From the NCBI GenBank assembly GCA_028282465.1, contig JANQHX010000021.1, positions 2,437 to 34,436 of the forward strand: a stretch of 32,000 bases of DNA. The letters are read 5' to 3'. The DNA is from Gynuella sp. (GTDB lineage: Bacteria > Pseudomonadota > Gammaproteobacteria > Pseudomonadales > Natronospirillaceae). The notes beneath the pieces are model-generated. The model ran no database searches. It was not told where the DNA came from and saw only the letters and a list, made by a program, of their open reading frames with translations. A program made the translations under genes and the position numbers. This document shows, piece by piece, positions 5,403-17,542 of this stretch; position 1 is the stretch's first letter, and the number at the start of each line of letters is the position of its first letter.

Positions 5403-7433
5403 TTAATCCAAGTCTTCACAATCATCTATGCCTGCAATAAGGGTGGCAGGCAATGCTCCACGAATACCTTCAACGTCTTCACAATTCAAACCAGTACCAG
5501 AAGCTTTTAACAATTTCAGTTGAGTTAACGACTCAATAGGAGTCAGATCAGCTGAAACATTGGATGACTCTATATCCAATTCTTCCAGACGATTCAGACC
5601 AGTTAAATCATCTAGGTTATTAATAGTTAGATGATTGAGCTTTAAGACTTGCAGCTGACTGAATTGACGAATAAAACTCAAATCAGAAACTGGTGTAGAT
5701 AAAATATCCAAGTATTTAATATTGGTTAATGTTTCCATTACAGAAGCGTCAACAAAGTCATAGCTCACATTCCAAATACTTAAAGATTCCAATTGCGAAA
5801 GACCCCTTAGTGGCTCTGGGCTTTCTATGCCGATAAATTCCAAATTCAGCGTTTGCAATTCAGCCATGTCTTTTAAACTTGAAGCATCTATTTTCCGTGA
5901 GTTAGAAAAACCATAAGCATTTGGTCTTAATGTTAAAGATCCTACTTGGTCCATATCTGCGAGAAAACCTAGACCTGTATAGGTACCAGTGTCATTCATG
6001 GCATAGGTTAATTCCAGGATATTTAAGCTGTCTAACTTTGGTAAGGCATTTTTAAGCCACTCTTCTTCATGAAACTCTATCACGAGTTTTTCTAAGTGAT
6101 CTTTCATGCCTTCAAGTGTTGAGGCGCTATTTTGGCTCAACTTAAAAGCATATAAGTCCAACAGAGTTAGGTTTTTTAGCCCCGACAGTGGCGAAATATC
6201 AAGTTCAGTGCTGCTAAAACCTCCATTTGTATAAACCAGCGAGATCAGTTCACTCATGTTAGCCAGATGGCTAAGATCCATCGGGGCTTCTAAATATTCT
6301 AAATCCAAAAATCTCATCTTGGTAAGCCCAGCTAAATTTACCAATGCTTGATCAGTGGTATTGCTTCCTAGCTTATTTAATTCAAGTGATTCCAATTCTG
6401 TTAGTGAACGCAGTGGAATTAGGGCGTCATCTAACAGCTCGTTTACTCCAAGGTTATTCTCGCTCAACGACAGTGACTCAAGCTGAGTCATGGAGGTTAA
6501 AGGAGTAATATCCTGAATTTGATTTCTTGATAACCATAAAGAACTTAGGTGAGTTAATCCGCCTATACCAGATAAATCATGAATTAAATTATCACTGGCT
6601 GATAGACTCGTCAGATTTGAGAATGCCAATAATGAATCAAGAGATTCAAATTGGTTTTGGGAAATATTAATTATCTGTAAAGATACTTGAGAGTCTTCAA
6701 GCTGGATTTCGGATATCTGGTTATTACTGATATCAAGCAATTTCAGGCTAGATAACCCAGGTAGGTTAACTGCAGGCCCTAATTCATTGCTATCTAGTTC
6801 AAGACTTTCCAATGCTGAAAGACCTGATAATCCTGTTACACCTTCAATATCGTTATCGCTGAGATACAGTGATGTTAGTTTAGAGTTACTTTCAAAAGAT
6901 GGCAGAGTTTCAATACGGTTGCTTTCAGCATAAAGGGTTTCTAGCTCTGGCTTATTTCTTAATGAGGCGATGCTTTTCAATTTGTTTTGCGCGAGATCAA
7001 CGATTGTAAGTTGTGAAAGATTCTCTAACGCATCGATAGACGTTACTGCATTGCCATATAGATGTAATTCTTTCAGCTGGGTCAGTTCAGCCAAAGGGGA
7101 TAAGTCTGTGACGGTATTAAGCGGGTCAACTTGATCTTCAAAAATATAGTTGAGATGGTTGTTCATCATAAGGTGTTCTAAATTCACAAATACTTCAATT
7201 CCTGAAATAGTTTTCACCCCTTTTTGTCGACAACGAATTTCGGTGACATCTTCAATGCTAGACCAGCCTTTCGATGCAGCGGTTGAAGAAATACACTGTT
7301 TAAACGCGTCATCTGGTATGTCTAGTTCTGAAATAAATTCAGGCGCTTGAGGAGTATTTGAATCATTTGACTCGTTGTTACAACCCATTAGGGTAACAAC
7401 TAATATCAGGGGAAGAATGGATCTAAATTTCAC
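5403..7433 (-). CDS. Leucine-rich-repeat (internalin-like) lipoprotein
   Basis: Signal peptide with lipobox LMGC (MKFRSILPLILVVTLMGCNN). Roughly 20-25 consecutive units of about 22 residues of type LxxLxxLxLxxNxIxDIxxL run through most of the 676 aa. Confidence 0.8.
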   Translation of the reverse strand: MKFRSILPLILVVTLMGCNNESNDSNTPQAPEFISELDIPDDAFKQCISSTAASKGWSSIEDVTEIRCRQKGVKTISGIEVFVNLEHLMMNNHLNYIFEDQVDPLNTVTDLSPLAELTQLKELHLYGNAVTSIDALENLSQLTIVDLAQNKLKSIASLRNKPELETLYAESNRIETLPSFESNSKLTSLYLSDNDIEGVTGLSGLSALESLELDSNELGPAVNLPGLSSLKLLDISNNQISEIQLEDSQVSLQIINISQNQFESLDSLLAFSNLTSLSASDNLIHDLSGIGGLTHLSSLWLSRNQIQDITPLTSMTQLESLSLSENNLGVNELLDDALIPLRSLTELESLELNKLGSNTTDQALVNLAGLTKMRFLDLEYLEAPMDLSHLANMSELISLVYTNGGFSSTELDISPLSGLKNLTLLDLYAFKLSQNSASTLEGMKDHLEKLVIEFHEEEWLKNALPKLDSLNILELTYAMNDTGTYTGLGFLADMDQVGSLTLRPNAYGFSNSRKIDASSLKDMAELQTLNLEFIGIESPEPLRGLSQLESLSIWNVSYDFVDASVMETLTNIKYLDILSTPVSDLSFIRQFSQLQVLKLNHLTINNLDDLTGLNRLEELDIESSNVSADLTPIESLTQLKLLKASGTGLNCEDVEGIRGALPATLIAGIDDCEDLD

Positions 7434-8886: not shown

Positions 8887-11091
8887 ATGTTAAAAAAAAT
8901 TCTGCGTAATCATCAAGCGGTTGTACTTGGGTTACTATTTACTGCCTTAACCTGTTGGTGGCAGTTGCATAATGACCCCCGCGAGCCGTCATTTCTAAAC
9001 CGTCTGGATTACATCCTCTACGACTGGCGGCTTAACTCCACTGGCTTTGCCAACAAACACCCTGACCACAATATTCTTATTGTAGACATAGACGAACGCA
9101 GTCTTAAGGTAGAAGGGCAGTGGCCCTGGGCCAGAACCAAGGTTGCAAAGCTGGTGCAGAAACTCTCAGAGCAAGGGGCCATTGTAGTCTCCTTCGACGT
9201 ACTGTTTTCTGAGCCAGAGCAGCATCCCTTGGAATTTATCTCTAATCTGGCTGAAGCCGAACCAGAGCTGTTAGCTCAATTAGAACAGTTTCGACAACAA
9301 TCAGATGGCGACCAACTGCTGGCACAAGCCTTTCAGCAAATGGACGTAGTACTAAGCTATTTACTCAGAGAAGAGCCAAACACAGTGGGTGCCCTGGGTC
9401 CCATTGTGGAAGAAATGACGGCAGAGCTCTCCAGCCGGAGCATTCTTCTCAAGGCTAATGGCTACACCGGCAATATTCCATTACTGGCCGACAGCGCTAT
9501 TTCCAGCGGCTTTTTTAACCCCACCCCCGACCCAGATGGGGTGATTCGCAGCGTGCCTTTGGTGTGGCGAATAGGTGATAAGGTGTATCCGTCACTAGCG
9601 CTGGCAACTGCCATGACCTATCTGTTTCAGGATGAAATCCATATAAAAAGAGTGGCGGTCGGCGACTTGGATTTTGTCGAAGGCATTCAATTTACCAAAA
9701 AGCTTATTAAAACCGACTCTCAAGCCAGGGTGATTGTGCCCTACATAGGCCCCAGAGATTCCTACACCTATGTGTCGGCCACCGATGTCTTAAATGACCA
9801 GGTGGATCTCTCTATTATGGAAAACGCCGTGGTAATGGTGGGCACCACAGCAGTGGGGTTATTCGATCTGAGAACCACACCGGTGGGCACTGAATACCCA
9901 GGAGTAGAAGTGCACGCCAATGTAGTGAATGCTCTTATGTCTGGTGATTTTCCCTATGCCCCAGATTGGAGTGACGCTGCAGTATTTGTTTTTCTATTAC
10001 TCATCGGCATTATTTTCTCTTTTGTGTTGCCAAAGTTTGGCCCAGTGGTGTTATTTTTATTTTCAGTGTTTGTACTGGTGATTTTAATCATCACCAATTT
10101 TTGGCTCTGGCAAGAACATAAACTGGCCTTGCCGCTAGCCAGCAGTTTAATTCTGTTATTTACCCTCAGCGTCATCAATTTAGTCGAAGGTTTTTGGCGT
10201 TCTACCCAAAGCCGAAGAGAAGTCACCGAAATGTTTGGCCAGTACGTGCCCCGAGCTCATATTGACCATATGCTAGAAGCGCCAGATGACTATGGTTTTG
10301 ACGGCGAAAGTAAAGAGCTCACAGTGTTGTTTTCTGACATTAGAAGCTTCACCACCATTTCTGAAAAGCTGTCGGCCATTGAATTAAAATCCTTATTAAA
10401 TCGCTACTTCACTCCCATTACCGAAATTATTTTTAATAACCGAGGCACCATCGACAAATACGTCGGCGACATGGTGATGGCATTTTGGGGCGCACCTTTA
10501 GACGATGAAAATCATGCCGAAAACGCTCTAAAAGCCACCATGGAAATGCTCGAAAAAATAGAAGCCTTAAAACCCGAATTTGTGGCAGACGGCTTACCAG
10601 AAGTGAATGTGGGTATTGGTTTAAATACCGGCCCCATGAACGTAGGCGATATGGGTTCAAACTTTCGCCGGGCTTATACCGTGTTAGGTGACGCTGTTAA
10701 TCTTGGTTCAAGATTAGAAAGCCTAACTAAATTTTACGGCGTGCAATGTTTAGTAGGGCCAGACACCAAAGACCTATGCCCCAATTATGCATTTCGCTTT
10801 GTAGATAAAATAATAGTGAAAGGCAAAGACGAACCCATTCAAGCCTGGGAGCCTTTGTGCCTAGAAAAAGATTTATCAGAAGATTGGCAAACCGAACTTA
10901 AACAATTTGAACAAGCCTATGAAAACTATGCTAACCAAAACTGGCAAGATGCTATTGAGCAACTGACACAATTAACAACCACTAGCCCAAGGCCATTTTT
11001 GTATCAAGTTTATTTAGACCGCATTGAAAGTTTAAAAGCACAAGACCTGCCTGAAGATTGGGATGGCACTTTTAGGCATACTTCGAAATAA
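8887..11091 (+). CDS. CHASE2 sensor domain-containing adenylate/guanylate cyclase (class III)
   Basis: N-terminal TM, a periplasmic region of about 330 aa, then a cluster of TM helices (residues ~360-440). A class III cyclase domain follows (LTVLFSDIRSFTTISE, YVGDMVMAFWGAP, GIGLNTGPMNVGDMGS, YTVLGDAVNLGSRLES). Confidence 0.85.
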   Translation: MLKKILRNHQAVVLGLLFTALTCWWQLHNDPREPSFLNRLDYILYDWRLNSTGFANKHPDHNILIVDIDERSLKVEGQWPWARTKVAKLVQKLSEQGAIVVSFDVLFSEPEQHPLEFISNLAEAEPELLAQLEQFRQQSDGDQLLAQAFQQMDVVLSYLLREEPNTVGALGPIVEEMTAELSSRSILLKANGYTGNIPLLADSAISSGFFNPTPDPDGVIRSVPLVWRIGDKVYPSLALATAMTYLFQDEIHIKRVAVGDLDFVEGIQFTKKLIKTDSQARVIVPYIGPRDSYTYVSATDVLNDQVDLSIMENAVVMVGTTAVGLFDLRTTPVGTEYPGVEVHANVVNALMSGDFPYAPDWSDAAVFVFLLLIGIIFSFVLPKFGPVVLFLFSVFVLVILIITNFWLWQEHKLALPLASSLILLFTLSVINLVEGFWRSTQSRREVTEMFGQYVPRAHIDHMLEAPDDYGFDGESKELTVLFSDIRSFTTISEKLSAIELKSLLNRYFTPITEIIFNNRGTIDKYVGDMVMAFWGAPLDDENHAENALKATMEMLEKIEALKPEFVADGLPEVNVGIGLNTGPMNVGDMGSNFRRAYTVLGDAVNLGSRLESLTKFYGVQCLVGPDTKDLCPNYAFRFVDKIIVKGKDEPIQAWEPLCLEKDLSEDWQTELKQFEQAYENYANQNWQDAIEQLTQLTTTSPRPFLYQVYLDRIESLKAQDLPEDWDGTFRHTSK

Positions 11092-11099
11092 ATAGTTCT

Positions 11100-14039
11100 T
11101 TAAGATTCATAGCGTGTTTCTATCAGTTTTCCTTTTAGATTGCTCAAATAGACTTGGTAGTATGACTCCATAAGTTCAGCTAGTTTTTCATATTCGTCAT
11201 TGCGTCCAAGTTGATAGCCCGCAGCAAAGTTTACAAAGTCCAGGTCTTTTAATTGCTGAACCATCACCTGATCAAGAAAATCAAACCATCCTTTGATTGA
11301 AGCCGATACCTCACAAGAGAAAGCATCGAACATTTCTTTGGCAGAATTAAATCCTATTCGGACATAATTGTTTCCAATTATTTGAAAAACGCCCATGCTT
11401 GTTGCTTGGTATGCCGCTTCTTCGTTAAGGCTACGGGCGAATTCAAATACCTCCCATTCTTTTCGTTGTTGACCATGAAAGTACTTCCAGTCTTCCTCAA
11501 CAGTTTTTCTCCATTTATGGCCTAACCAAACCTTGCTTGAGTCGTATTGAAAATGTTGGTTATATAAATCAGTGTTTGTTTTACCCCAATATTTCCAAAA
11601 TAAGTGATTTTCAAAACGTATTTTTAAACGATCTGAGTTGGTTTTATCTAGCTCTTCATCGTTAGATATCGAGCACAAAACAGCGAGGATGCAGCCTAAA
11701 TCAATTGCTGTTTTATTGCTGATTTGGAATATGAGTTTGCCGTATTTATCCCAGATAGAAGTCAGCTTGTTTATTTTATCCTTGTCCACAAAATCAGATT
11801 TTATTTCAGCAGGTTTAACCCGACTATTTTTGCCGATAGTAACTGTTAGTTTTCTTGGCCGACCCTGTTCATCCACGTTGTTTTCATCCCATTCCGCAAT
11901 GGAATCTTCATTGCCAAGGTTTTCCCAGATTTCCTTAAACATCATTAACGGGAAAATTCTGTCGTTTGTGTCTTTGCCCCAGAGCCACTTATACAATCGT
12001 GGGTCGGCTGGGTATTGGTTGCCGGGTTGGCCGGTTGAGTTGCTTCTTGCGAAGCCGGGTTGGTTTTCTGAGCAAATTATTTGGGTGTGGTATGCAGCCT
12101 CATTTTCAACCCACTCTTCAACAATGGCCGGGCCTTCCAAATCCTTGTAAAAAGTTTTTAAACACTTGCCAGTGGCTAGATCCCAGAGCTTGAGAGTGTT
12201 ATCAGTGCTTCCGGAAATGAATCGCTGGTCATCCACCATCGCCGCGCTGGTAACCGGGCCTCCATGGCCCACAAAGGTTTGTAAACAATTCCCGGTGGCC
12301 AGATCCCAGAGCTTGAGGGTGCGATCATCGCTTGCGGAAATGGCCCCCTGGTCATCCACCACCGCCACGCTGTTGATCCCGCTCCCATGGCCCACAAAGG
12401 TTTGTAAACACTGCCCAGAGGCCAGATCCCAGAATTTAAGAGTGTTATCATAGCTTCCGGAAATGGCCCGCTGGTCGCCCACCACCGCCACGCTGGTGAC
12501 CGATAGTTGATGGCCCTCAAAGGTTTGTAAACATTGAGCGGAGGCCTGATCCCAGAGCTTGAGGGTGTTATCCCAGCTGGCGGAAATAACCCGCTGGTCA
12601 TCCACCACCGCCAGACTGTTGACCGAGTGTTGATGGCCCTCAAAGGTTTGTAAGCACTGTCCGGAGGCCAGATCCCAGAGCTTGAACGTGTGATCATCGC
12701 TGGCGGAAATGACCCGCCGGTTATCCACCGCCACGCTGCTGACCCAGTCTTCATGGCCCTCAAAGGTTTTTAAACACTGTCCGGAGGCCAGCTCGAAGAG
12801 CTTGAGTGTTCTGTCATAACTGCTGGAAATAACCCGTTGGTGATCCACCACTACCACGCTGCTGACCCAGTTTTCATGGCCCTCAAAGGTTTGTAAGCAC
12901 TGTCCGGAGGCCAGATCCCAGAGCTTGAGGGTGTGATCACCACTGGCGGAAATGACCCGCTGGTCATCCACCACCGCCACGTTGGTGACCCAGTTTTCAT
13001 CCTCAAAGGTTTGTAAGCACTGTCCGGAAGCCAGATCCCAGAGCTTGAGAGTCTTATCACGGCTTGTGGAAATGACCCGCTGGTTATCTACCACCGCCAT
13101 GCTAGTGACCGAGCCTTGATGGCCCTCAAAGGTTTGTAAACACTGCCGGGAGGCCAGATCCCAGAGCTTGAGGTTAGCACGGCTTGCGGAAATGACCCGC
13201 TGGTCATCTACCACCGCCACGCTTGTAACCAGACCTCCATGGCCCTTAAAGGTTTGTAAACAATTGCCGGTGGCCAGATCCCAGAGCTTAAGGGTCTTAT
13301 CACGGCTTGCGGAAATGACCCGCTGGTCATCCACCACCGCCACGTTGGTGACTGGGCTTTTATGGCCCTCAAAGGTTTGTAAGCACTGTCCGGAGGCCAG
13401 CTCCCAGAGCGTGAGGGTCTTATCACGGCTTGCGGAAATGACCCGCTGGTCATCCACCACCGCCACGCTGCTGACCCAGTTTTCATCCTCAAAGGTTTGT
13501 AAGCACTGTCCGGATGCCAGATCCCATATCTTTAGAGTGTTATCATCGCTTCCGGAAATGACCCGCTGGTCATCCACCACCGCCACGCTGGTGACCGAGT
13601 CTCGATGGCCCTCAAAGGTTTGTAAACACTGCCGGGAGGCGAGATCCCAGAGCTTGAGGGTGTAATCATCGCTGGCGGAAATGACCTTCTGGTGATCCAC
13701 CACAGCTACGCTGGTGATCGAGGCTTGATGGCCAAGCCTAGTTAGACTTGGCAGCGATGTTTTTAGGTTAGCTGGGGTGTGCCATGGCACTCGCGTTTTT
13801 GATGTTGTGGAGTCACTTTCATTAAACCGAGCAAAATAATGCTCGGAGTAGGCCAGCGGTGTGCCCTCAAGGTTTGCCGGTGTTAAATCAAGCCCGCGAA
13901 TATAAGAACCGCTTAGATCCAGCTTGGAATAGTCCAATGTCTCAGCTCCAACAGTTGCTAAGCCGATAGGCTGAGCAGATTTGTATTCCGGGTTTATTTT
14001 TTTAACTAAAAGAGAAAGCGCCTGTGCGGTTTTATCCAT
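11100..14039 (-). CDS. WD40-repeat (13 blades) protein fused to a C-terminal DUF3380/N-acetylmuramidase-like domain
   Basis: 979 aa with no signal peptide. Residues 103-631 form 13 tandem 40/41-aa WD units (GHxxxVxSVAVVDDQRVISASxDxTLKLWDLASGQCLQTFE). Residues ~760-979 carry IRFENH, WLGHKWR, FHGQQRKEWEVF and SMGVFQIIG, about 50% identical by eye to the C-terminus of the 16202..17542 product. The ATG at 14039 overlaps the upstream KAP gene stop by 8 nt. Confidence 0.85.
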   Translation of the reverse strand: MDKTAQALSLLVKKINPEYKSAQPIGLATVGAETLDYSKLDLSGSYIRGLDLTPANLEGTPLAYSEHYFARFNESDSTTSKTRVPWHTPANLKTSLPSLTRLGHQASITSVAVVDHQKVISASDDYTLKLWDLASRQCLQTFEGHRDSVTSVAVVDDQRVISGSDDNTLKIWDLASGQCLQTFEDENWVSSVAVVDDQRVISASRDKTLTLWELASGQCLQTFEGHKSPVTNVAVVDDQRVISASRDKTLKLWDLATGNCLQTFKGHGGLVTSVAVVDDQRVISASRANLKLWDLASRQCLQTFEGHQGSVTSMAVVDNQRVISTSRDKTLKLWDLASGQCLQTFEDENWVTNVAVVDDQRVISASGDHTLKLWDLASGQCLQTFEGHENWVSSVVVVDHQRVISSSYDRTLKLFELASGQCLKTFEGHEDWVSSVAVDNRRVISASDDHTFKLWDLASGQCLQTFEGHQHSVNSLAVVDDQRVISASWDNTLKLWDQASAQCLQTFEGHQLSVTSVAVVGDQRAISGSYDNTLKFWDLASGQCLQTFVGHGSGINSVAVVDDQGAISASDDRTLKLWDLATGNCLQTFVGHGGPVTSAAMVDDQRFISGSTDNTLKLWDLATGKCLKTFYKDLEGPAIVEEWVENEAAYHTQIICSENQPGFARSNSTGQPGNQYPADPRLYKWLWGKDTNDRIFPLMMFKEIWENLGNEDSIAEWDENNVDEQGRPRKLTVTIGKNSRVKPAEIKSDFVDKDKINKLTSIWDKYGKLIFQISNKTAIDLGCILAVLCSISNDEELDKTNSDRLKIRFENHLFWKYWGKTNTDLYNQHFQYDSSKVWLGHKWRKTVEEDWKYFHGQQRKEWEVFEFARSLNEEAAYQATSMGVFQIIGNNYVRIGFNSAKEMFDAFSCEVSASIKGWFDFLDQVMVQQLKDLDFVNFAAGYQLGRNDEYEKLAELMESYYQVYLSNLKGKLIETRYES
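12147..13733 (-). repeat. Intragenic tandem repeat array (13 units of 120/123 bp) encoding the WD40 blades
   Basis: The motif AGATCCCAGAGCTTGA (or close variants) recurs near 12178, 12300, 12423, 12546, 12669, 12789, 12912, 13032, 13155, 13275, 13398, 13518 and 13641. An exact 42-nt duplicate occurs at 12987-13028 and 13473-13514. Confidence 0.9.
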
Positions 14040-15981: not shown

Positions 15982-16201
15982 CTTTAAATGAGTCCATCCT
16001 TGAGACTACATGAGTATTCAATTGCTGGCGTCTAAATTCAATGGTTTCAAACCAATAAAGTCATGAGTTTTTCATTGATCCAAAACTAATTTGGTTGATG
16101 TTTGCTGAGCTAGTATGGGTATCTGCGCATTATCCGTTAGCAGTCAAAAAATAAGCCTGCTAAATTGCTATGACTGAAAGAAAATACAAGGAAATGTGTT
16201 C

Positions 16202-17542
16202 ATGTTTGCCAAGGTAACCGCGTCTGCGCTCAATGTACGATCTGTGCCCAAGGCCTCAGGGAAAATTTTGGGTGTCCTTCACAAGGATCAAGTCATCCGC
16301 ATAGAAGGTGAGGAGGGCAGTTGGAGCCAATTAGCTTATATGGGTCAAACTGGATTTGTGGCAACAGAGTATTTGACGTTTGAATTTGAAACGGATCAAT
16401 TAATGGGCAAAGTGACTGCCTCTTCACTGAATGTCAGGCCCGACCCTTCAACCTCGAATGAGCCTATTACAAAACTGGATAATGGGGTAGAGGTGAGCGT
16501 TTTAAAGCAGGTGGAGGATTGGTACGAAATAGCACTGCCGGATTCCACAGGTTTTGTGTCAGCCAAGTTCATTGACGTCAGTATCCCTGACCAACCCAGC
16601 TTGATTTTGGTGAATGCTAGTAATTTAAATGTTCGTTCTGGGCCTTCAACTGACCATGAAATTATCGGTTCAGTTGACCAGGGCACTCAATTAATCAAAG
16701 TGTCAGACAATAATGATTGGATTGAAGTTCGGTTTAATGATGAACCTGGGTATGTGCATTCTGATTTTGTAAAACCATTTAGTGGCACTGCCAAGAAACC
16801 AAGGGCAAGACGTACCCGTCTAATCAATTCAACAAGCGCCTCATCGACTGACAGCGCATTGGAACCAGACACTCAGCTGTTAATTGAAGGGGACAAAACC
16901 CAGAAAAAGGTGGCTAGAACCTGGAATAGCTTTGGTGGCATTTTACAAAAGCTCAGTTCAGATTTTGGTTTTGAAGCTGCCAGCGCAATAGCTGTGCTTT
17001 GTGTTGAAAGTTCGGGTAAGGGTTTTCAAAAAAGTAATGACAACCGCATGATCATTCGTTTTGAAAACCACAAGTTTGACGGTTATTGGGGTGAACAGAA
17101 TTCAGAATTATTTGATCAGCATTTCAAATACAACAAGAAGGGTAAGAAATGGCTGGGTCATGAGTGGCGAGAAACTACCAACGATGAGTGGAGTCGCTTT
17201 CATGGCAAACAAAGAAAGGAATGGGAGGTGTTTAATTTCGCAAGACACTTAGACAGTGATGCGGCCATGATGTCTATTAGCATGGGAGCTCCCCAGATTA
17301 TGGGTTTTCATTATAAACGACTGAATTACTCATCAGTGGCTGAAATGTTCGATCAGTTTTCCACTGACATGGCGGCGCAAATTGAAGGATTGTTTCGTTT
17401 TCTGGATAAACGAATGATAAAGGCATTAGTGGAAAAAGACTTTGTGGAGTTTGCTCGCTGGTATAATGGTGCTGGACAAAAACAAAAATATGGCGGCTGG
17501 ATTATGGATCATTATCAGGCCTTTAAATCTTTAGCGAATTAA
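16202..17542 (+). CDS. Three SH3b domains fused to a DUF3380/N-acetylmuramidase domain (endolysin-like)
   Basis: Three SH3_3-like units are present (ALNVRSVP...GFVATEYL; SLNVRPDP...GFVSAKFI; NLNVRSGP...GYVHSDFV). After a basic/Ser-rich linker the domain carries AVLCVESSGKGF, IRFENH, SMGAPQIMG and FARWYNG. The track starts at GTG 16196. ATG 16202 has better spacing to AAGGA (16187-16191). No signal peptide was found. Confidence 0.8.
   Translation: MFAKVTASALNVRSVPKASGKILGVLHKDQVIRIEGEEGSWSQLAYMGQTGFVATEYLTFEFETDQLMGKVTASSLNVRPDPSTSNEPITKLDNGVEVSVLKQVEDWYEIALPDSTGFVSAKFIDVSIPDQPSLILVNASNLNVRSGPSTDHEIIGSVDQGTQLIKVSDNNDWIEVRFNDEPGYVHSDFVKPFSGTAKKPRARRTRLINSTSASSTDSALEPDTQLLIEGDKTQKKVARTWNSFGGILQKLSSDFGFEAASAIAVLCVESSGKGFQKSNDNRMIIRFENHKFDGYWGEQNSELFDQHFKYNKKGKKWLGHEWRETTNDEWSRFHGKQRKEWEVFNFARHLDSDAAMMSISMGAPQIMGFHYKRLNYSSVAEMFDQFSTDMAAQIEGLFRFLDKRMIKALVEKDFVEFARWYNGAGQKQKYGGWIMDHYQAFKSLAN

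Follow-up and report, generated by a model that had tools for sequence, protein, structure and literature searches.

What does a bacterium do with a long array of WD40 repeats that share one framework almost to the letter and differ at only a handful of positions? The question is posed by a 32,000-nucleotide (nt) stretch of DNA from Gynuella sp. (contig JANQHX010000021.1; hereafter the window, at its full length), which carries on its minus strand an open reading frame (11100..14039) for a protein of 979 amino acids (aa), P0001, composed of an N-terminal adaptor, a WD40 array, and a muramidase-like end domain. Upstream on the same strand lies the gene of a partner, the 649-aa KAP-family P-loop NTPase P0002 (14032..15981; PF07693, E 9.5e-37). 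The reading developed here, to which we assign a probability of about 0.6, is that the array and the KAP protein work as a pair, forming an NLR-type repeat sensor switch of which the array is the predicted recognition half.

The array spans aa 102-630 of P0001 (12150..13736, minus strand), as delimited by Tandem Repeats Finder (TRF), PF00400, a match in the Protein Data Bank (PDB), and an AlphaFold2 (AF2) model. TRF describes 13.0 copies of a 123-nt period at 12150-13733, with 82% matches and a score of 1853, and PF00400 recognizes 13 stretches of P0001 (E 4.4e-109), establishing the units as WD40 repeats. Cut at their CL[QK]TF motif, units 1-4 in gene order fall at 13614-13736, 13491-13613, 13371-13490, and 13248-13370, units 5-8 at 13128-13247, 13005-13127, 12885-13004, and 12762-12884, and units 9-13 at 12642-12761, 12519-12641, 12396-12518, 12273-12395, and 12150-12272. 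Their lengths in the same order are 41, 41, 40, 41, 40, 41, 40, 41, 40, 41, 41, 41, and 41 aa; the frame stays open across all 13 although four independent one-codon deletions are present. The initial annotation of this DNA, made from its letters alone, had described 13 units of 40 or 41 aa on an almost invariant framework, and TRF, the cutting of units, and their alignment agree with it; its coordinates (12147-13733) located the array properly, though 3 nt out of phase with the units and with no strand given.

On average two units are 81% identical in nucleotides and 71% identical in amino acids (0.708, range 0.575-0.854). This clears the median of more than 60% used for recently amplified propellers (PMC9218822) and is borderline against the value of 0.7 used for highly repetitive (HR) WD40 proteins, a metric that is calculated otherwise (PMC5587647). 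Around the near-invariant framework, the entropy per alignment column is highest at columns 4, 5, and 6, directly after the GH dipeptide, and at columns 23 and 25, the two variable positions of S-x-D-x-T. These are the sites at which the initial annotation had seen variation concentrate, and the residues it listed there are correct. The structural tetrad of the WD40 fold is complete in 9 of the 13 units, His being absent from units 3 and 7, Asp from unit 5, and Trp from unit 8. Units 3 and 7 both begin with E-DENWV, an oddity also remarked on earlier, and are the closest pair of all at 92.5% nucleotide identity. As units 2 and 6 are in turn 88% identical, the two-unit block 2-3 (13371..13613, minus strand) has evidently been duplicated or converted with respect to units 6-7 (12885-13127), in agreement with a TRF score that peaks at a period of 486. 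An exact match across the unit 2/3 and unit 6/7 junctions, previously noted as 42 nt (12987-13028 = 13473-13514), is in fact 43 nt long, and the longest exact repeats inside the array reach 54 and 53 nt.

Where on the protein do the variable columns lie? A single-sequence AF2 prediction of the whole of P0001 had a mean pLDDT of 46 and was unusable for mapping. The model used instead covers residues 94-760, was computed from an alignment of eight family members, and reaches a pLDDT of 85-95 over most blades, with four strands per unit. According to DSSP, strands a, b, c, and d of the model correspond to columns 7-14, 17-22, 26-31, and 37-41. Columns 4-6 thereby fall in the d-a loop and columns 23-25 in the b-c turn. 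With four antiparallel strands to a blade, these two connections emerge at a common end, by convention the top face, leaving the a-b turn (columns 15-16) and the c-d loop (columns 32-36) for the opposite one. Because this follows from the topology, the placement needs no coordinates, and in the predicted propeller the hypervariable columns are on one face, the outcome of the mapping that the initial annotation had proposed as a check.

The partition of the 13 blades into rings is less clear-cut. The best PDB match by sequence, and also the best by fold, is the Nostoc WRAP propeller 2YMU (E 7e-118). Part of the AF2 model closes into an eight-bladed ring that superposes on the designed Tako8 at 1.3 Å (TM score 0.95-0.96). 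Model confidence falls at units 5-6, unit 5 being the one without the tetrad Asp of the b-c turn, and the pTM of the whole is 0.46. The model suggests a 5+8 split, which would be an unusual partition; 6+7 is the alternative. A degenerate 14th blade behind the array, considered as an explanation of the conserved count of 13, found no support (hhalign probability 0.1, low AF2 confidence). The segment in question has no Pfam hit, a low pLDDT, and no similarity to a blade by hhalign. Ahead of the array, a linker without repeats (aa 61-101; 13737..13859, minus strand) is likewise of low pLDDT.

Do the changes on this face exceed what drift would produce? Rates were obtained by Nei-Gojobori counting over all pairs of units, pN and pS being the proportions of nonsynonymous and synonymous differences and dN and dS the corrected values. 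The choice of columns matters here: a dN/dS of 2.4 over the five most variable columns is a post hoc selection, hence circular, and is not for use alone. The WDSP rule of Wu et al. fixes the interaction hotspots of a blade beforehand, as R1-2, R1, and D-1 (PMC3419727), which are columns 6, 8, and 23 in these units. At these a priori hotspots pN is 0.45 and dN over the framework dS is 1.9, against a pN of 0.137 and a pS of 0.286 in all other columns; among random triples of columns, just 0.44% vary as much. The top-face columns together (4, 5, 6, 8, 23, and 25) give a dN over framework dS of 2.25, the bottom-face loops 0.45, and the strands 0.27. As the top face stands at 1.9-2.25 against 0.45 for the bottom loops, and so few random triples match the a priori one, the variability is specific to a face and does not simply reflect loops that are free to vary. 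An excess of nonsynonymous change at a few interaction-face positions, as in fungal HNWD receptors, is present here as well (about 1.9 or 2.25 vs. 0.27-0.45), from few codons and near saturation.

The same columns are hot in other members of the family. When the five hot columns of the P0001 array are applied to the array at the homologous locus L011, they have a pN of 0.54 against a framework pS of 0.079 and pN of 0.043, roughly tenfold above the neutral expectation, and their residue combinations recur as a few blade types. The array of L015 is hypervariable at the equivalent post-GH and S-x-D-x-T positions, so that the hot columns coincide in three independent arrays. Outside these columns, framework sequences are particular to a lineage, and so even is the length of the unit, 41 or 45 aa. 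Compared with the units of L007, the closest homologous array, those of P0001 show a pS of 0.57-0.78, which is saturation, while pS within the P0001 array is 0.28. Since synonymous differences are this limited within an array and saturated between arrays, and since frameworks are lineage-specific, the sequences indicate that arrays evolve in concert, by homogenization, or are re-amplified within lineages. A recent transfer of the array from the L007 lineage, whose blades are the most similar, was considered and rejected on the same saturation of synonymous sites.

The partner of the array is equally informative. P0002 has a Walker A motif (GEWGIGKT) and a Walker B motif (VDDLDRC), and by sequence the partner NTPase is a KAP-family protein encoded on a separate gene, not a STAND protein: the KAP_NTPase model matches at E 9.5e-37, and the sole STAND-type match, nSTAND_NTPase5 (E 0.005), is under its cut-off. 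Nor is P0002 an equivalog of QatA, the NCBIfam QatA model scoring 107 bits against a cut-off of 600; Qat partner genes are absent from the window, and the QatA, PifA, and PDC-S20 matches that PADLOC returns for P0002 are at family level only. Judged from the 8-nt overlap ATGGATAA (14032..14039, minus strand), which joins the stop codon of the KAP gene to the start codon of the WD40 gene, the two genes are translationally coupled. An overlap of 1-11 nt recurs in the homologous loci L007, L010, L011, L012, and L013, and the KAP+WD40 pair is kept in at least 10 loci (L007, L009-L013, L015, L016, L018, L019, L021). P0002 homologues come mostly from Gammaproteobacteria. The three closest, at 46-39% identity, are each followed by an overlapping gene for a protein that shares the N-terminal segment of P0001 and continues into WD40 units, and their contigs end within the WD40 array.

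That N-terminal segment is a conserved adaptor of about 55-60 residues, common to homologous pairs. In P0001 it comprises aa 1-60 (13860..14039, minus strand), and its motif, ALxLLxxKxNP ... YLRGLD, emerges when it is aligned with 10 homologues whose genes follow KAP genes. The adaptor by itself returned no match in a word-based search. A profile of it, run against 1.84 billion representatives, matched in two kinds of place: the N-terminus of partner proteins, and the stretch that separates a KAP domain from a WD40 array. The latter arrangement is found in P0144, P0186, and P0219, which are single-chain KAP-adaptor-WD40 fusions, and because such fusions exist the two genes are functionally linked. 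The 8-nt overlap, the conserved pairing, and the fusions together make this a KAP NTPase joined to a repeat sensor. In the profile search, the latter half of the adaptor (L.G.YLRGLDL) matched many further proteins in multiple stretches; these resemble pentapeptide-repeat proteins, and one or two pentapeptide-like turns may close the adaptor itself.

At the other end of the array, P0001 has a post-array segment and a family-conserved C-terminal domain (aa 631-748; 11796..12149, minus strand) with the motif ADPxLYxWLW ... W..W. This ADP...W domain is present in all complete members of the family, represented by the partner proteins of L011, L013, L015, and L016, none of which has the muramidase domain. 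Two further proteins, P0138 and P0147, consist of the adaptor and the ADP...W domain in only about 260-300 aa, with no obvious repeat; because of them, the two end domains may be regarded as the conserved part and the WD40 array between them as an optional insert.

Several loci carry complete arrays. L011/L014, on a closed 4.29-Mb chromosome from a metagenome-assembled genome (MAG), has 13 units of 41 aa; L013 has about 13 degenerate units; L015 has about 14-15 units of 45 aa; and L016 (7977-10445, from a long-read MAG) has 14 units of 45 aa that hardly differ from one another. With P0001 included, blade counts across the family are 13, 13, about 13, 14, and about 14-15. The L016 units differ only by S or R at one post-GH position and by A, D, or Q at D-1 in the last units. 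An amplification-differentiation cycle of propellers has been described by Pereira and Lupas (PMC9218822), and by their sequences the members of this family cover the whole of it: L016 just amplified, L011 diversified at the hotspots only, P0001 intermediate, and L013 decayed. Six short-read contigs (L007, L009, L010, L018, L019, and L021) all stop inside the downstream WD40 array, and because of this, public assemblies and protein sets systematically truncate the KAP+WD40 family. The 60 related genomes, the protein collection, and the metagenome contigs contained no conspecific or congeneric sequence, and the literature searched contained no described KAP+WD40 system.

In one respect P0001 stands alone in its family. 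Behind the ADP...W domain it has an appended muramidase-like domain (aa 749-979; 11103..11795, minus strand) that matches PF11860 at E 3.5e-26 and 93 bits, well over the cut-off of 22.3, and so belongs to that domain family. These 230 residues match the PDB endolysins 7RUM, 7Q4S, and 5NM7. They are also 44% identical to the catalytic domain of an adjacent, divergently transcribed gene (16196..17542, plus strand) that encodes three SH3b domains and a PF11860 muramidase (Pfam SH3_3 three times; Muramidase E 1.2e-36). In AP3gp15, the endolysin of Burkholderia phage AP3, the catalytic Glu101 sits within V-E-S, and an E101A substitution abolishes 99.4% of the activity (PMC5674055). The adjacent paralogue and most homologues have V/I-E-S/A at this place, and the VES of the paralogue is intact and aligns to 7Q4S. 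The P0001 domain does not align there; it reads S-I-S, with Ile791 (codon ATA, 11667..11669, minus strand) at the position of the catalytic glutamate. Because the glutamate is replaced, the domain more likely binds peptidoglycan than cuts it.

The adjacent SH3b-muramidase gene is the probable source of the appended domain, to judge from their likeness and proximity. A muramidase gene does not accompany the KAP pair in the closest relative, L009, and the 60 related genomes have no muramidase homologues beyond the window's own two copies. When the C-terminal domain was used as a query, a collection of 5.8 billion proteins returned only SH3- or peptidase-muramidases and no second WD40+muramidase architecture, and the matches in metagenome contigs, to SH3b-muramidases, did not exceed 40% identity. 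The domain is absent from all other KAP+WD40 family members seen.

These elements can be assembled into a working scheme. The 13 repeats would be the blades of a WD40 double propeller mid-way in the 979-residue P0001, and the array would be the half that recognizes the ligand in an NLR-like switch of two chains. Every blade would add contact residues of its own to a composite surface. Gene conversion or re-amplification within the array would hold the scaffold uniform, and selection would keep the contact residues different. The KAP NTPase, docked on the adaptor, would then read out the binding of a ligand. The muramidase-like end domain, a gain confined to this genome, would be a copy from the neighboring gene. 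A further proposal, by analogy with the integrated decoys of plant NLRs, is that the inactivated muramidase domain, captured from the neighboring gene, is an integrated bait. NTPase, hypervariable propeller, and decoy enzyme would then make up a bacterial guard-type receptor, and the KAP/WD40 switch would fire when a protein of an invader engages the host lysin fold or when muropeptides bind; we regard this extension as speculative and improbable.

Several observations weigh against a recognition surface under diversifying selection. The dN/dS excess is modest and comes from 3-6 codons that are near saturation. The array is not young: between units pS is 0.28 and dS about 0.36, far from the few or no synonymous differences of a recent amplification. 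Two distant members, P0001 and L011, both have 13 blades, which argues for structural constraint over free variation, and the division of these blades between two propellers is uncertain, given the eight-bladed ring and the low confidence at units 5-6. Tested for recombination by the pairwise homoplasy index (PHI) on just 20 informative sites, the 13 units gave no significant result (p 0.12-0.26). The genome has no paralogous array, no other copy of the unit DNA, and one weak WD40-like match elsewhere. No effector domain was recognized in P0001 or P0002, save the muramidase-like domain with its missing glutamate. The neighborhood, moreover, looks like housekeeping (an ABC transporter, a cyclase, a PfkB and an SDR protein) and not like a defense island, and has no mobile-element genes. 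The initial annotation had spoken of a rapidly evolving recognition surface: the excess of nonsynonymous change on one face supports the surface, while the synonymous divergence, the 71% amino acid identity, and the PHI result temper the speed. Its description of the repeats as recombination-prone is not supported by the same PHI result, and the genome offers no paralogous array with which to exchange.

Could drift alone have produced this pattern? One blade might have been amplified and its copies left to diverge, with unconstrained loops on a generic scaffold. The family continuum, from the near-identical L016 through L011, near-identical outside its hot columns, and P0001 at 71% to the degenerate L013, is what an amplification-differentiation cycle would generate (PMC9218822), and the substantial dS and the non-significant PHI test are compatible with passive divergence. 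Drift does not explain, however, why the bottom-face loops, which are equally exposed, are conserved (0.45) when the top face exceeds the synonymous rate (1.9-2.25), why the hot columns of L011 are so far above a framework pS of 0.08, or why three independent arrays should share their hot columns. Neutral amplification and differentiation is in our estimation unlikely. That the repeat number or order stems from collapse or chimeric joining of short reads is far harder to credit. Such arrays do defeat assemblers, as the six contigs ending inside homologous arrays attest. Here, however, units differ by about 19% in DNA, the longest exact repeat of 54 nt is below ordinary read length, and the frame is intact across 13 units with four in-frame one-codon deletions, all of which make an artefact very improbable; on its 34.8-kb contig the array also has 11-18 kb of sequence on either side.

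The muramidase-like domain invites yet another interpretation, in which the array is a scaffold of the cell envelope that positions this domain, and perhaps the SH3b-muramidase too, for ATP-regulated remodeling of peptidoglycan, with no recognition of non-self. The fusion of PF11860 to P0001, the active-looking, 44%-identical paralogue next door, and the housekeeping-like neighborhood all speak in its favor. Yet the KAP+WD40 pair is widespread in the absence of the domain, which only this genome has, and the catalytic glutamate of the domain has become an isoleucine. A signal peptide or transmembrane segment is not evident in P0001 or P0002, and the hypervariability of one blade face would be left unexplained. 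We consider an envelope scaffold decidedly unlikely.

How does this pair relate to known systems? A conserved scaffold with hypervariable positions is characteristic of fungal HNWD NLRs and of bacterial highly repetitive WD40 and WRAP propellers (PMC4986451, bioRxiv 10.1101/2020.01.06.895854, PMC5587647, PMC9218822). The initial annotation had drawn the parallel with fungal HNWD/HET-E and bacterial STAND WD40 sensors; the pattern does match this literature, but the partner is a KAP protein on a separate gene, and P0001 and P0002 are not members of the STAND/NLR or HNWD families. The best match among solved structures is WRAP ("WD40-family Recently Amplified Propellers," exemplified by Npun_R6612 of Nostoc punctiforme, 2YMU), which likewise strings blades of roughly 41 aa into two tandem propellers, is coupled to an NTPase in an operon-like arrangement, and has a proposed role in prokaryotic innate immunity (PMC9218822, bioRxiv 10.1101/723619). 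WRAP, however, shares its polypeptide with a STAND ATPase, and its 14 blades differ by just 10 substitutions and at no synonymous site, whereas P0001 has its KAP protein on a separate chain and 13 blades at 71% identity and a dS of about 0.36, and is not recently amplified. The HR prokaryotic WD40 proteins of Hu et al. (2017; PMC5587647) share an internal identity of about 0.7, a conserved framework, and diverse predicted interaction hotspots. That class is defined by sequence statistics only, and a KAP partner, an adaptor, or a muramidase-like domain is not described for it.

The fungal NACHT-WD40 NLRs of the HNWD/HET-E/HET-D type (PMC4986451) resemble the present array in having a few interaction-face positions that evolve faster than neutral and in the concerted evolution of their repeats. 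They differ in carrying NACHT in the same polypeptide together with HET or another N-terminal effector, while P0001 has no NTPase domain; in repeats that are about 85% identical and exchange among paralogues, against 71% and no paralogous array here; and in a documented polymorphism of repeat number. Among KAP proteins themselves, more distant homologues of P0002 carry FGE-sulfatase/C-type-lectin domains (PF03781), and over the NTPase P0002 is 31-38% identical to such proteins. This architecture is a reported target of hypermutation by diversity-generating retroelements (DGRs), in putative antigen sensors of multicellular bacteria (PMC10907252). Like the present pair, the DGR-lectin systems of KAP and STAND NTPases couple an NTPase to a fast-diversifying sensor; unlike them, P0001/P0002 has a WD40 array on a second protein as its sensor, diversification by repeat evolution, and no reverse transcriptase within the window. 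The WD40 region of Apaf-1 (3SFZ, 3SHF) offers a tandem WD40 propeller sensor on an oligomerizing NTPase and an eight-bladed ring, as predicted here, although its blades are fully differentiated and its NTPase is an NB-ARC domain in a single chain. PF11860 N-acetylmuramidases such as AP3gp15, for their part, share the fold of the end domain, from which P0001 departs by the loss of the single catalytic glutamate to isoleucine and by fusion to a cytoplasmic-looking WD40 protein in place of a cell-wall-binding domain.

A conserved scaffold with hypervariable top-face hotspots is accordingly familiar from HR-WD40, WRAP, and fungal HNWD arrays. What sets this locus apart is a KAP in place of a STAND partner on a separate chain, a defined adaptor, and a unique muramidase-like domain devoid of its catalytic glutamate. 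Repeat sensors with a hypervariable face provide new specificities without dedicated mutagenesis in fungal NLRs and apparently in many bacterial NTPase systems, to which this locus would add a two-chain version with a KAP NTPase and a recognizable adaptor for docking. Since its family ranges from fresh to decayed arrays, the cycle of amplification, homogenization, and diversification becomes comparable across lineages. The dead muramidase domain and the extreme base composition of the array may, moreover, inform how baits are acquired and how repeats are homogenized.

That composition sets the array apart from the rest of its own gene. G+C content at third codon positions (GC3) is 0.647 in the array (12150-13736), against a host-like 0.41 in the N-terminal and 0.40 in the C-terminal part of the gene, and 0.35 in the KAP gene. 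The genome, of 4.48 Mb, has 1714 open reading frames of 300 aa or more, none of which reaches the value of the array (mean 0.39, SD 0.044, maximum 0.573). GC3 is high in all 13 units, and minor synonymous variants mostly have A/T where the majority has G/C (34 vs. 10). The highly repetitive arrays of the low-GC relatives L007 and L012 have a similar, weaker excess; those of L011 and the degenerate L013 have little or none. The cause may be GC-biased gene conversion, or the array may be of foreign origin.

Two other genes of the window merit mention. Convergent with the WD40 gene, at 8887-11091 on the plus strand, is a gene for a CHASE2 sensor/class III nucleotide cyclase, the stop codons of the two being 8 nt apart; its cyclase domain matches the Pycsar PycC models (E 2.5e-29), which probably reflects similarity at family level only. 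Farther away, at 5403-7433 on the minus strand, a protein of 676 aa consists almost wholly of leucine-rich repeats (LRR_4, E 9e-42).

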